The notes: generated by a model not told the origin, from the letters alone. A DNA stretch of 64,000 bases from Planctomycetota bacterium (GCA_036479435.1 JAZGFI010000090.1:14846-78845); one strand, 5' to 3'; shown: positions 47,353 to 64,000, counted from the first letter of the stretch. Numbers and translations: made by a program.

Positions 47353-47426
47353 GGGCGATTAGCTCAGCTGGTTAGAGCGCTTCGTTCACACCGAAGAGGT
47401 CACAGGTTCGAATCCTGTATCGCCCA
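47353..47426 (+). tRNA. tRNA-Val (anticodon CAC)
   Basis: Manual fold: acceptor GGGCGAT/ATCGCCC, D-arm GCTC-AGCTGGTTA-GAGC, anticodon stem CTTCG/CGAAG with loop TTCACAC, T-arm ACAGG-TTCGAAT-CCTGT, and discriminator A. Sits immediately upstream of an integrase. Confidence 0.85.
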
Positions 47427-47560
47427 CTTTCTTAACTTTCGCCGACGCCTGAACTTCAGGCAACCCGCCCCAAAGGCGGCGCGGCCGCAACCTCAAGAGT
47501 TCTCGGTTACCAGTATCCGTTTCAGGATTTGGTAGCCGTCGAAAGAGGAGACGGCGCGCT

Positions 47561-48781
47561 ATGCCACGCAACAAACGCAACCCAACGTATCGCAATTTCA
47601 AACCGCGAGATCTCGGCTTCGTCGAGCTTTTCGTAGCCGAAAAGAGAAGACCGCAGCGTTTCTACTTCCCCGGTCCCTTCAATTCAGCTCAAAGTAAGGC
47701 CGCTTATCACCGCGTCCTCGCTGATTTGCAGTTCACCGAATTCGGCGAAGTCCCTAATTGCCTGAAGAAACCAGAAGAGAGAGTAGGAATCTCCGTTTCG
47801 AGGCTCGTCGATCTTTACATCGAGAAAGAAGCGAAGGTCCGTTATCGAACGAAGGACGGTTCGCTTTCCGGCGGCTTTCCTATCGTGAACATCACCCTCC
47901 AATACTGGGTCACGCACTTCGGCGATCTTAGGGTCGAGGAATTCACTCCACGGCTTCTTAAATCTCTTCGAGATCGACTGATCAAGAAACGCCTCGCCCG
48001 AAGCACCATCAACGACAAGATGAGAATCATCGTTACGGCCCTTAGGTGGGCGGTAGAGGAAGAGTTGGTCCACGAGTCGGCCTGGAGGTCTCTCCAGGCG
48101 GTAAGGACGCTCCAGCGGGGGAGAAGCGAGGCTAAGGAGACCGAGCCGATCACACCCGTGGAAAAGGCGGACGTCGAAGCTGTTCTTCCCCACCTCACTT
48201 CCGTGCTACGGGCTATGGTATTGGTGCAGTGGTTCAGCGGCGCGAGACCCGGCGAGGTCTGCACGATGCGAATTCGCGAGGTGGATAGAAGCGGCAAGAA
48301 TTGGATCTACAAACCGGAACACCACAAGACCCTGCATCACGGCAAAAAGAGGTTGCTCGTTTTGGGCCCAAAGGCACGTGAAGAACTATCACTATTGCTT
48401 AGGCCAGATCCCGACGCCTACTTCTTTTCGCCCGAGGTCTCCGAGCGAGAACGCAAAGAACAGCGCCACGCAGATCGAAAAACACCTTTGAGCTGCGGCA
48501 ACAAACCAGGCAGCGTCCGAACCCCTAACCCAAAGCGACCACCAGGCGCCTTCTTCTCCACCCAATCCTACGGACGAGCCGTTAAGCGAGCTTGCGTCAA
48601 CGCAGGCATCGCTCCTTGGACGCCCAACCAACTCAGGCATTCAGCCGCGACGCGGATCAGAAAAGAGTTCAGCCTCGAACACGCACGTGCTGTACTTGGT
48701 CATTCCTCAACTTCAACCACTGAGATCTACGCCGAAGTCGATAAGACCATCGCCATCGATGTAATGGAACGGATCGGCTGA
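47561..48781 (+). CDS. int: Tyrosine-type site-specific integrase (phage integrase family)
   Basis: N-terminal SAM-like/core-binding region, then a catalytic domain with 'WFSGARPGEV' (Arg I), 'HKTLHHGKKR', 'LRHSAATR' (His-x-x-Arg II) and 'TEIYAEVD' (Tyr nucleophile). Confidence 0.9.
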   Translation: MPRNKRNPTYRNFKPRDLGFVELFVAEKRRPQRFYFPGPFNSAQSKAAYHRVLADLQFTEFGEVPNCLKKPEERVGISVSRLVDLYIEKEAKVRYRTKDGSLSGGFPIVNITLQYWVTHFGDLRVEEFTPRLLKSLRDRLIKKRLARSTINDKMRIIVTALRWAVEEELVHESAWRSLQAVRTLQRGRSEAKETEPITPVEKADVEAVLPHLTSVLRAMVLVQWFSGARPGEVCTMRIREVDRSGKNWIYKPEHHKTLHHGKKRLLVLGPKAREELSLLLRPDPDAYFFSPEVSERERKEQRHADRKTPLSCGNKPGSVRTPNPKRPPGAFFSTQSYGRAVKRACVNAGIAPWTPNQLRHSAATRIRKEFSLEHARAVLGHSSTSTTEIYAEVDKTIAIDVMERIG

Positions 48782-60835: not shown

Positions 60836-62367
60836 GACAATAGTCCCTCTAATTCATCGAGGTCTGAAGTGATTTCTCTTTCCAACATCCTAATTTTCTC
60901 AATAATGATTCGCGGCTTTTCAGTCTTGGCTTCTTCGTAGACGACTTCCTTGTATCGATTCATGGAAAGGTCGTAATTCTCATCTCTAATTTCGTCAGCC
61001 GACACAAAGAAAGCCTGCGCCTTTCGATCATTTAGTTTCTTGGCGTCTCTTTTTCGCCATTGCTCAACAACATCGGGCAAATCATTTTCTTCAACCGGTC
61101 CAAGCGGTGTTTTTTCTTTGGATGCCTCCGCACGTTTGTCATCTAGAGAATAACCATCCCGCTTAACGTCATAGAAGAAAACGTTGTCTGTTTTTCCACC
61201 TTTTGTGAACACGAGGATGGCCGTTGACACACCGGCATAGGGCTTGAAAACGCCGGACGGCAAGGAGATAACCGCTTCAAGTTGGTTTTCGTCCACGAGC
61301 AGTTTGCGCAGCGATTTGTGGGCACCAGATGAATTGAAAAGAACGCCGTCGGGAACGATGGTAGCACTCCGACCGCCCAACTTAAGCATCTGTAAAATAA
61401 GCCCAACGAATAGTAACTCCGTCTTCTTAGTTTTGACTTTCCGAATCAGCGAAGGATGCACATCGGCATAGTCAAGGCTACCCTTGAACGGTGGATTCGC
61501 AAAGATGACGTCAAAAGCGTTCTCTGCAAACTGTGGAAACTTCTCAGGAAACGAATTACTCAGGGTATCTCGGTAGTGAATCCCTGGATTGTCGACTCCA
61601 TGAAGCATCATGTTCATAGCCGCAATGCGCAGCATCGTCACATCAAAGTCGAAACCATGAAACATGTCTTTTTGTATGTGCTCGCGATAGGGCTCGAGCT
61701 TGTCGCCTGTGAAAATGATGCTGCCGTCCTCAGCTTTGATTTGTCCGGCTTTGGATGTATGAGTTTCAAGAAGATATTGCATGGCCCCAACTAAGAAACC
61801 TGCGGTGCCACAGGCAGGGTCAGCAATTGTTTCGTCTGGTTTTGGTTCAAGTAGCTCAACCATTAGCCGAATGATGTGTCTTGGAGTTCTGAACTGCCCA
61901 TTGATGCCGGCTGTAGTCAACTTGCCAAGCAAATACTCGTAGAGGTCACCTTTGGTGTCGCCGGAGGTGAGAGGAAGTTCATCGACCATGTTGACTGCCT
62001 GAACCAAGAGGCTCGACTTCTGAATCATCAGCTGAGCATCAGCCATGTACTCACTGAAAGTGTCTCCTTCGCTGAGATTCCGTAGATGTTTGAATACGTT
62101 GTCACGAACCATCGGCATCATTTTCTCACCGCTGAGGTGCTTGAAGCTCGACCAACGAAACTCCTGCTCATCTTTAGCGAACACTGGCTGAAACTGCTTC
62201 TTTGATCTTGCGGCACGTATCTCGCTGGCAGACTCTTTGACGTCGAGCAAGCGGATGAACATCAGAAATGAGATCTGCTCAATGACAGTGAGGGGATTGG
62301 TAATCCCGCCTGTCCAAAAGGCTTCCCATAGTTTGTCAATCTTGCTTCTAAGTGGACCAGTAATCAT
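60832..62367 (-). CDS. hsdM: Type I restriction-modification system DNA methyltransferase subunit (N6-adenine)
   Basis: HsdM N-domain, motif I '[12 protein letters not shown]', and motif IV 'NPPF'. 4-nt overlaps with both hsdR and hsdS. Confidence 0.9.
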
Positions 62368-64000
62368 GCAGAGTGTCCTCGGACATCAGGAAAGTTGAAT
62401 CGGTCAATCAGTGTCAGCAGCTCGTCAATGAGTTTGCCTTCAAAGACGCCATCGACGCCGTTTGAGCTGATTGATGTAAATGGTGGATCATAAAGACGGT
62501 CGACTTCGAGACCGCCATTCGCGCAAATGTATGCTTGAAGAATTGAGATGAATTGCAGCTGCTGTGAAGTCAATTCTGTGTGCTTGTGAATGAACTCAGT
62601 AAAACCCACATCCACTGCCTCGGTGTCTAAGCCAATGATGCTTCGAAGCGCACGGTGCAAATCACCAGCCACGTCGATCTTGATGGGTAGGTTCTTGAGA
62701 TCGACCTGTGGGTCGACTCTTAGAATCTTCAATGCCAGATCGTCCAAGTCCTGTTCCGAGACGGCCTCGCCGGCTTTGATTCGAGCGAGGGTAGGGTCTG
62801 CCACGAAGTGTGATTCCAAAACTTCTTGGACGCGCTGTCTGTAGGCAATGAGCTCTTGGCCATCGACCTTCGGGGTGTGTGACTCGGCCACCATAAAGCT
62901 GTCTTTCACATCGATTGTGACAGGATCAATCCTTGGCGCAGCAATCACAATCTTATGTTTCATGATCGACCGCAGATCAGTTCTCAAGTGCTCAAGGTCC
63001 GCAAGAGATGCACTTTCCCAGAACTCATCGCTTCGAACTTGGAGAATGCTGTCGGTCTTTGCTTTCACCTGGTTCAGATTCTTGGGAAGAGCCTCGACTT
63101 CATCTTTCAGCTGGCCAGCCAAGTCTGCGTATTCGCCAGATTCTTGTAAGAGAGAGGTCTGCATGCTCGTCATCAGCAGGTCGTGTCGATAAGCGTCTTC
63201 GTTCCCTCTGATGTCACACCAACGCATGAGTGGTGACACAATGTCGACCAAGGCTGCGTGGGTAGCGGCAGCAAAGGACTTGAGAGTGGCTTCCGAGCCA
63301 AGCTCCTGGAGGTTCTTCCAATGATCTCGGACTCCGATTGCCTTGGAGTTCTTAAGGAAGTTGATGTCAGCTCGAATCAGCTTTATGGCACCCTGGAAGG
63401 CCACTTCGTTCATCTTCTCCAAAGCAACTCGCGCAAACTCGACTCGAGTCCTGAAGACGCGTTCCATGAGTGACTTCGTCGGCGCTGGACTCTGCTCTTC
63501 GAAATGCTCGTCAAAGTACTCAAAGTTGCCCCAATGATCGAAGATGAGGAATTCAGTCTTGTGCATGCCAGGACCAAAGAGGTTAGGACAAAGTCTGGTT
63601 CCACGTCCGATCATCTGCCAGAACTTGACATAGGACTTTATCGGCTTGGCGAAGACCAAGTTCACGATCTCGGGCACGTCGAGGCCGGTATCCATCATGT
63701 CGACTGAGATTGCGATGCGAAGCTCGTGGTCTGGGTTCTTGAAATCATCAATGAGCTGCTCTGCTCTGGGATCGTAGTTGTCGATCACGCGGCAGAAATT
63801 GCCACCATACATGGGATAGAGCTCTGAAAAGACTTCAGAGAGATGCTCTGCATGTTTGTGACCACGGGCAAACACAATGGTCTTCCCTGGTAGGCTTCCA
63901 GACTCATCGCTGATTCCATTTTCCATCAGATTTCGAAGGATGTGACGGCTGGTATCCTTATTGAAAATCTTGCGGTCAATATCGGTTGACTCGTGCTCTA
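62364..64000 (-). CDS. hsdR: Type I restriction enzyme endonuclease/helicase subunit, C-terminal portion; gene continues beyond window end
   Basis: Helicase C-terminal motifs '[14 protein letters not shown]', '[15 protein letters not shown]' and 'QMIGRGTRL'. The reading frame stays open upstream of M63926 through position 64000 (…[22 protein letters not shown]…). Confidence 0.85.

Follow-up and report, generated by a model that had tools for sequence, protein, structure and literature searches.

A ~22.1-kb island at tRNA-Val in a Planctomycetota bacterium carries predicted defense genes and a TV-Pol-type polymerase gene

Genomic islands inserted into tRNA genes by P4- or lambda-type integrases have a recognizable layout: the integrase gene lies beside an intact, restored tRNA gene, a direct repeat of the tRNA 3' end marks the distal boundary, and the DNA between them has foreign GC (guanine plus cytosine) content and codon usage and carries accessory genes. 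Here, we describe an element with this layout in a 64,000-nucleotide (nt) stretch of DNA from a Planctomycetota bacterium (GCA_036479435.1 JAZGFI010000090.1:14846-78845), hereafter the window. The most convincing explanation, which we hold with high confidence, is that the 3' part of the tRNA-Val(CAC) gene of this bacterium served as the target at which a tyrosine integrase inserted a single element of ~22.1 kb. The island differs from typical tRNA islands in its host, an uncultured planctomycete, in the remnant of a second integrase immediately behind the first, and in the length of its repeat (44 nt, spanning the tRNA gene from anticodon loop to 3' end), which contains a compensatory difference in the T stem.

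Parts of the cargo also have described relatives. In the Menshen system (NsnABC), which often adjoins type I restriction-modification (R-M) genes, NsnA is a ParB/DUF262 protein, NsnB is an ABC ATPase with a DUF3696 domain that docks NsnC, and NsnC joins an inactive-PIN N-terminal domain to a variable C-terminal effector domain (PMC12065111). Pairs of an ATPase and an effector embedded in restriction systems have been described as HEC-03, PARIS and PrrC (bioRxiv 10.1101/2024.01.29.577857). The 2008 description of the TV-Pol family by Iyer, Abhiman and Aravind includes a hairpin Arg, two Asp residues, a fingers Asp and an RxxxK motif, without a nuclease domain; it lists planctomycete members of the family, and also a subset that has an additional N-terminal domain, linkage to lambda-type integrases and locations in R-M-rich hot spots (PMC2579912). 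The SCCmec member of the family, CcPol, has been shown experimentally to act together with the protein MP as a primase-polymerase (PMC7581432, PMC10061031).

The sequence shows directly where the element begins and ends, its att repeats and integrase, its composition and the genes it carries. The target, an intact tRNA-Val(CAC) gene at 47353-47427 on the plus strand (ARAGORN; Rfam RF00005, 73.2 bits), is followed as the next open reading frame (ORF) by an intact tyrosine integrase of 406 amino acids (aa) at 47561-48781, plus strand, which matches Pfam Phage_integrase (E=1.6e-14) and Phage_int_SAM_5 as well as the integrase family phrog_1 (E=4.6e-35). Its ATG is 134 nt past the tRNA end, in agreement with an initial annotation of the window that had placed a complete tyrosine integrase just after this tRNA. 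The 3' part of the tRNA gene falls within attL, a 44-nt direct repeat at 47385-47428 whose left edge coincides with the start of the anticodon loop (TTCACAC) and whose right edge is 2 nt beyond the tRNA gene. The 64-kb window contains only this one copy of the tRNA-Val 3' end. The initial annotation had observed that hsdR runs off the window end, had noted that attR is therefore not visible, and had recommended searching for the tRNA 3' repeat downstream. A look-up of the exact HsdM protein provided the necessary sequence, namely a 41-kb NCBI contig (L002) that shares 13,169 nt with the window at 100% identity, and a 3.99-Mb contig (L001) with the same locus. The partner repeat, attR (TTCACACCGAAGAGGTCACTGGTTCGAATCCAGTATCGCCCACT), is located 5.5 kb beyond the window end, at window-equivalent 69515-69558, and matches 47385-47428 at 42 of 44 nt in the same orientation, exactly where GC content returns to the core value. 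Shuffled island sequence reached a maximum of 22-26 of 44, and a test for a tandem array detected no match beyond chance level inside the island, including the interval between the two integrase sequences. ARAGORN detected no complete tRNA at the attR end, which marks attR as a displaced tRNA 3' fragment. The two mismatches between attL and attR form a compensatory T-stem pair (ACAGG/CCTGT versus ACTGG/CCAGT), so both copies derive from functional tRNAs. The repeats enclose 22,086 bp, and the element is flanked on the left by an FG-GAP repeat gene and on the right by a convergent ECF-type sigma-factor gene and DUF6172.

Composition changes at the same boundaries. GC content is 0.579 for positions 1-47352 compared to 0.511 for 47429-64000, and the left flank, whole island and right flank have values of 0.579, 0.510 and 0.578, respectively. 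The 1-kb windows of core and island do not overlap (core minimum 0.535, island maximum 0.533). In 500-nt windows, GC is 0.50-0.52 up to 69500 and 0.57-0.61 from 69501, with the first window past attR back at 0.578; the composition boundaries thus match the att repeats within one 500-nt window on both sides. GC at third codon positions (GC3) is 0.685±0.032 in 33 long core ORFs (minimum 0.620) compared to 0.546±0.035 in 13 island ORFs (maximum 0.622; Mann-Whitney p=2e-7). Codon usage shifts clearly at Arg, Pro, Ala and Tyr, and tetranucleotide correlation, 0.97 between the two halves of the core, falls to 0.57-0.64 between core and island. These are the sliding GC and codon-usage comparisons that the initial annotation had proposed as a check on its impression of AT-richer DNA beside a core of ~60-65% GC: the shift is real and sharp, but the core has only ~58% GC. 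The view that this is a horizontally acquired tRNA island is borne out by composition, codon usage, the att repeat and the lack of a full tRNA at the far end.

In this explanation, the copy of the tRNA 3' part carried by the element now completes the gene at attL, and the displaced original 3' part remains as attR. The crossover most likely took place in the anticodon loop, where the repeat starts. Excision would be performed by the integrase with the AlpA/HTH_17-type protein described below, and the TV-Pol-type polymerase, to judge by its family, may prime or replicate the excised circle. Because the element has no transfer or packaging genes, its spread would require a helper. The cargo is predicted to act mainly in defense, through the type I R-M genes with an NsnB-like ATPase and its PLD (phospholipase D)-fold partner, a CARF-sigma54 regulator with DUF2130, and possibly an operon of HTH, 108-aa and glycosylase-like genes. 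The predicted junction of the empty site, attB, is ...GAGCGCTTCG/TTCACACCGAAGAGGTCACTGGTTCGAATCCAGTATCGCCCACT/AAGAAAGCCTCGAG, and that of the circle, attP, is ...CCAGGAACGGC/TTCACACCGAAGAGGTCACAGGTTCGAATCCTGTATCGCCCACT/TTCTTAACTTTCGCC.

Two independent assemblies, from two other samples, are suggestive, if not proof, of an island that is polymorphic or excising. A Logan contig with the left-flank genes (L009, SRR17063066) ends in ...GAGGTCAC, at the last base before the first mismatch between attL and attR (window 47403), and a SPAdes contig with the right-flank genes (L017, ERZ25083849) ends at the first base of the repeat, TTCACACC... (window-equivalent 69515). Both ends are the branch points expected of attB (or attP) versus the occupied allele. 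The attL and attR repeats share no exact run of more than 19 nt; Logan uses k=31 and SPAdes a k of at least 21, so the repeat alone should not break contigs.

Several results weigh against the insertion of one element at tRNA-Val. Neither an empty site nor a circular junction was seen directly: contigs found via the integrase have only the occupied arrangement, with no attP (DUF2130-att-integrase) junction, and a search of a species-representative genome collection with the left-flank FG-GAP protein recovered only paralogs of 25-29% identity. The full tRNA pattern (with two N) had 0 matches in JGI metagenomes, and the att repeat had 0 in viral contigs. The genome, JGI and viral collections thus yielded no close relative for the comparison with insertion-free genomes that the initial annotation had suggested. 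No convincing iterons or tandem repeats that could serve as an origin were found in the island. Finally, the element is not a pristine single acquisition, as shown by the remnant of a second integrase and by an integrase region richer in GC than the cargo.

The last of these points leads to an explanation that we take seriously while judging it to fall short of probable: tRNA-Val was initially the site of an older element whose integrase was related, and a later event, either a second integration with deletion or recombination, swapped the integrase module, so that integrase and cargo have different histories. The remnant, a pseudogene at 48888-49203 (plus strand) comprising ~105 C-terminal codons of a second tyrosine integrase, is an open frame that starts 107 nt past the stop of the intact integrase (repeat families D1/D2), matches positions 102-169 of the 172 in Pfam Phage_integrase (E=1.4e-13) and is 48% identical in aa sequence to the C terminus of the intact integrase. 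Its simplest reading is that the tRNA-Val site has been used more than once and that the integrase module was replaced. The integrase region has an intermediate GC of 0.554, compared to 0.506 in the cargo, and two small excisionase-like HTH ORFs are present. However, neither the interval between the integrase sequences nor any other part of the island holds a tRNA-derived att copy, and a single attL/attR pair bounds the whole element; a composite history would modify the explanation of insertion at tRNA-Val rather than replace it. A less likely possibility is that the element integrated once and is now a fixed, immobile remnant inherited vertically. All four long contigs (L001, L002, L008 and L029) are in the occupied state, no circular junction occurs among the integrase-bearing contigs, and transfer genes are absent, as this explanation would predict. 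It accords poorly with a full-length integrase, att repeats intact at 42 of 44 nt, a composition that has not ameliorated and the two assemblies that break exactly at att branch points, for which a 19-nt run is too short given the k values above.

The gene content also bears on what kind of element this is. Its integrase, AlpA-type protein, replication-type polymerase and defense cargo resemble P4-like or PICI-like satellites, and the polymerase family is found in many phages. Nonetheless, we consider it improbable that the island is a prophage, a phage satellite or an integrative conjugative element (ICE). No capsid, terminase, portal, tail, relaxase or type IV secretion gene is among the 17 listed genes, a count that leaves smaller intergenic ORFs unscanned, and no satellite-specific hijacking genes were recognized. 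The island proteins scanned with Pfam, NCBIfam and PHROGs include no relaxase and no type IV secretion or coupling proteins, and the only PHROGs matches are the integrase, weak HTH matches and phrog_4756. With neither conjugation nor virion genes among the scanned proteins, we take the element to be neither an ICE nor a prophage. We find it scarcely credible that this is a native region of odd composition in which the tRNA fragment arose by local duplication or chance. The sole point in its favor is that direct observation of the empty site is lacking; it is contradicted by composition boundaries that coincide with the repeat within one 500-nt window on both sides, a 42-of-44 match far above chance, an integrase that adjoins the tRNA and foreign codon usage. 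Insertion of one element at tRNA-Val by its integrase accounts best for these observations, and we discuss its cargo on that basis.

The initial annotation had listed an excisionase, RadC, regulators, a polymerase-like ORF and defense genes, and the genes identified here agree with this list, the excisionase being a candidate. It had also considered the island the likeliest place in the window for a novel system, which is only partly so. As an island it is of an ordinary, textbook kind, a tRNA-integrated defense island with both ends now defined, and its cargo comprises variants of TV-Pol, type I R-M, a Menshen/HEC-like pair and a CARF regulator. Its value lies elsewhere: few mobile elements have been described in Planctomycetota, and this one is cleanly bounded, seems to be polymorphic still, and has four candidate defense modules beside a TV-Pol polymerase. 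The modules that most deserve follow-up are the R-M/ATPase/PLD unit and the CARF-sigma54/DUF2130 pair.

The most unusual feature of the island is a conserved module of five genes on the minus strand. From their sequences, hsdR, hsdM and hsdS can be assigned unambiguously to one type I R-M operon. The window contains the C-terminal 545 codons of hsdR (62364-64000; PADLOC REase_I, E=5.5e-126), and the full gene on L002 encodes 1127 aa and ends at window-equivalent 65747 (REase_I, 1.5e-300). It is followed by hsdM, encoding the methyltransferase (60832-62367; PADLOC MTase_I, E=2.9e-181; Pfam HsdM_N and N6_Mtase), and hsdS, encoding the specificity subunit (59651-60835; PADLOC Specificity_I, E=3.4e-97). 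Only 2 nt after hsdS begins the gene of an ABC-type ATPase with a C-terminal, NsnB-like DUF3696 domain (58179-59648; Pfam AAA_15, AAA_21 and DUF3696). The best PADLOC models for this protein are PDC-M55A (E=2.8e-44), NsnB (E=6.2e-41) and HEC-03B (E=8.6e-30), and the NsnB match is full-length (residues 10-494 versus model positions 1-336 of 345). The last gene (57253-58179), which overlaps the ATPase stop, encodes a 308-aa partner and predicted effector with a C-terminal domain resembling PLD and MIT_C. This partner has no match in Pfam, PADLOC, PHROGs or NCBIfam, but has at least 179 homologs of ~305-317 aa, from sources that include Sorangium, Myxococcus, Kofleriaceae, metagenome-assembled genomes of other Deltaproteobacteria, and Thermoanaerobaculia; the island adds Planctomycetota. 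Residues invariant in their alignment include H163, D166, H244, R246 and D271, of which H244 and R246 form an H-x-R motif. With an AlphaFold2 (AF2) model of the partner, the top Foldseek matches were Streptomyces PLD (1f0i, E=5e-4) and the MIT_C domain of MITD1 (2ymb, 4a5z), both to the C-terminal domain. The N-terminal 140 residues were modeled with low confidence, and no PIN fold was recovered there.

The order hsdR-hsdM-hsdS-ATPase-effector, the last gene encoding ~313 aa in the related loci, was found in all six loci examined (the island and five related loci, two of which have an extra gene inserted in the unit). The ATPase and partner genes overlap by 1-4 nt in all six, and most other junctions overlap or abut. 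Named loci with the five-gene unit belong to Planctomycetota, Myxococcota (Sorangium) and Thermoanaerobaculia. The pair resembles Menshen in that the ATPase with its DUF3696 tail is a full-length NsnB match and that the partner has the same structural neighbors (PLD and MIT_C) and a similar H-x-R motif as the PB-PLD1 class of NsnC. Unlike Menshen, NsnA is lacking, with no ParB/DUF262 match among the island proteins or in the gene tables of the five related loci, and the ATPase/PLD pair lies directly after hsdS in a five-gene unit. The island pair resembles HEC-03, PARIS and PrrC in the physical linkage of its two genes, for an ATPase and an effector, to a restriction system, and, as with PrrC, pairs of the island type have so far been seen with type I R-M only (6/6 loci). 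The effector distinguishes them, since it has a PLD fold in the island, compared to PIN in HEC-03, Toprim/DUF4435 in PARIS and an anticodon nuclease fused to the ATPase in PrrC. The position also differs, with the island pair appended after hsdS and not nested between hsd genes. Because embedded ATPase/effector pairs have already been described, we rate the island pair as a variant of a known theme. PARIS, Gabija and Septu were each considered as identities for the pair and rejected, as the partner is not a DUF4435, Toprim or HNH protein and its fold is PLD-like.

In the likeliest mechanism, the ATPase would hold the PLD effector or activate it in response to a signal from phage, which might be the condition of the R-M complex. 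A stronger proposal, which we regard as tentative and rather doubtful, is that hsdR-hsdM-hsdS-ATPase(DUF3696)-PLD is a single, obligatorily coupled five-gene defense system, a relative of Menshen minus NsnA, in which R-M is a sensor or is guarded in a PrrC-like manner. In such a system, the type I R-M complex would be the DNA sensor or the guarded component, and blocked restriction would cause the ATPase to free the PLD effector. With this unit, it could be tested whether pairs of the NsnB/NsnC type that are linked to type I R-M function in the absence of NsnA.

In two of the related loci, further defense genes follow the unit, which indicates that it occurs in defense islands elsewhere too. 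In L018 (7962-12228), the R-M/ATPase/313-aa genes are followed by TIR/ThsB-like, Nmad2 and MazG_C genes, and in L019 (7941-14287), by KAP NTPase, QatB, TatD and AbiE genes. The 3.99-Mb contig L001, assembled from long reads, has zero substitutions compared to the window. It does have an exact 268-bp tandem duplication within hsdR (L001 8898-9433; window 62935-63202), which splits HsdR into products of 971 and 252 aa and reflects either natural restriction-minus variation or an artifact of assembly.

A second candidate module lies inside the island but beyond the window. It consists of a 501-aa CARF-sigma54-HTH regulator, which matches PADLOC RtcR_PspF2--CARF_AAA_HTH from end to end (E=7e-195), and a divergent DUF2130 gene (window-equivalent 65935-68977; L002 3391-6433). 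A sigma-54-like -24/-12 element, TGGCAC-N5-GTGCG, is located 50 nt upstream of the DUF2130 start. DUF2130 is listed in a survey of the PD-(D/E)XK nuclease superfamily (PMC3424549). Relatives of the island DUF2130 gene directly follow a Cas_NE0113 (CARF) gene in two metagenomic loci (L023 and L025), and in L025 the setting is a type III-like CRISPR locus, among Csm6, RAMP and Cas1 genes. These arrangements suggest that DUF2130 may be a CARF-linked effector, and the pair could serve as a test case for whether DUF2130 nuclease-family proteins are effectors under CARF control.

The polymerase-like ORF at 54891-56633 (minus strand; 580 aa from a GTG start, 551-569 aa in public calls) appears to encode a minimal polymerase related to family A and T7 RNA polymerase, of the TV-Pol type. 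It has no match in Pfam, PADLOC or NCBIfam and no nuclease domain in Pfam; a PHROGs family without annotated function, phrog_4756, matches residues 378-570 (E=9e-46). An exhaustive profile search collected 11,794 cluster representatives at E<=1e-3, evidence of a very large unannotated family, and relatives are encoded in 230 phage records, almost all labeled hypothetical. In an alignment with 11 homologs from a word index, R390 (GGRFY), D418 (ELDYS), K460, N468 and D549 (HDSF) are invariant, and D439 and R456 nearly so. The first ~109 residues are not conserved and are modeled with low confidence. For residues 360-580, the AF2 model has 10-residue-block mean pLDDT (predicted local distance difference test) values of 73-97, mostly above 85. 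Foldseek searches of the PDB returned Taq, Bst, apicoplast and Pol-theta polymerases first, then mitochondrial and T7 RNA polymerases, with probability ~1, and the BFVD matches were full-length phage relatives (E~1e-19) followed by T7-like RNA polymerases. Sequence searches of the PDB with profiles of this protein and of the 308-aa effector gave no useful matches.

Like TV-Pol and CcPol (~450-580 aa), the island polymerase has a minimal A-family palm and fingers core with the beta-hairpin Arg, the catalytic Asp pair, the fingers Asp and RxxxK. It also resembles TV-Pol in having no exonuclease domain, in its additional N-terminal domain and in its location near an integrase and R-M genes. Two differences stand against these similarities: no D5-like helicase, resolvase or SSB-like MP partner was recognized beside it, and its subfamily has an invariant Asn (N468) at the position of the conserved Tyr of motif B. 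For a direct comparison we turned to Microcystis phage Ma-LMM01; where the 2008 description names this phage it gives no ORF, and MAP_030 was picked by its motifs. An hmmsearch with the polymerase alignment did not match this motif-picked ORF, and hhalign aligned the motif A/B region collinearly but without significance (E=0.033, probability 1.5%). We therefore base the TV-Pol-type assignment on motifs and modeled fold, not on pairwise statistics, and its primase/polymerase activity is a prediction. The island could show whether TV-Pol enzymes replicate integrase-borne islands.

Relatives of the polymerase occur in varied settings. One (P0002) has an integrase on one side and a GmrSD restriction gene on the other, a setting similar to that in the island. 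In L021 (4063-5319), a tRNA-Ser(CGA) gene adjoins the integrase of the TV-Pol relative, with the integrase abutting the 5' end of the tRNA, not the 3' end. A further relative (P0009; L022 8001-10805) is a 934-aa protein in which an N-terminal reverse transcriptase (PF00078) is fused to a TV-Pol-like polymerase domain; its neighbors are PIN and DUF4325 genes, inside a sugar-biosynthesis locus.

The remaining genes of the island begin behind the integrase remnant with a short HTH-like ORF (49394-49735, plus strand) that matches Pfam DUF1580 narrowly (E=8e-6, 25.8 bits versus a cutoff of 24.4) and is called by one public gene caller only, being present in L029 and absent in L008. To judge by its sequence, this ORF may have come from the older element and persisted, or may represent a second gene of the excisionase-like kind. 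The excisionase or regulator candidate is an AlpA/HTH_17-type small DNA-binding protein encoded at 49868-50113 (minus strand; Pfam HTH_17, E=2.5e-7). Also on the minus strand are genes for a RadC-like JAB domain protein (50640-51101; Pfam RadC, E=2.2e-41) and a 217-aa protein (51239-51892) with no family match in Pfam, PADLOC, PHROGs or NCBIfam.

Three further minus-strand genes form an operon that is possibly defense cargo. The first, at 53520-54455, encodes a 311-aa Xre-type HTH regulator with a Cys-rich middle (Pfam HTH_31, E=7e-6; PADLOC HTH_VI). The second (53161-53487) encodes a 108-aa protein without a match in the same four databases and overlaps by 11 nt the third (52293-53171), whose 292-aa product has a C-terminal half weakly similar to HhH-GPD/8-oxoguanine glycosylases (NCBIfam N-glycosylase/DNA lyase, E=6e-6, below the cutoff; PADLOC OGG, E=3.2e-6; Pfam Ogg-HhH, E=0.005). 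A tblastn search of plasmids with the 292-aa protein yielded a single stand-alone hypothetical protein, which was uninformative. The stretch at 54456-54540 that the initial annotation had noted as AT-rich lies immediately upstream of the HTH gene; it has 28% GC and is likely the promoter/operator region of that gene. Scans of the whole island for sigma-70 promoters and terminators did not rise above shuffled expectation.

Two observations concern core DNA outside the island. A Schlafen/AlbA_2-domain protein (Pfam, E=2e-15) is encoded at 44833-45474 on the plus strand, in DNA of core composition two genes upstream of tRNA-Val. Far to the left, positions 12001-13000 form an isolated GC peak of 0.676 compared to ~0.58 around it, with negative GC skew.

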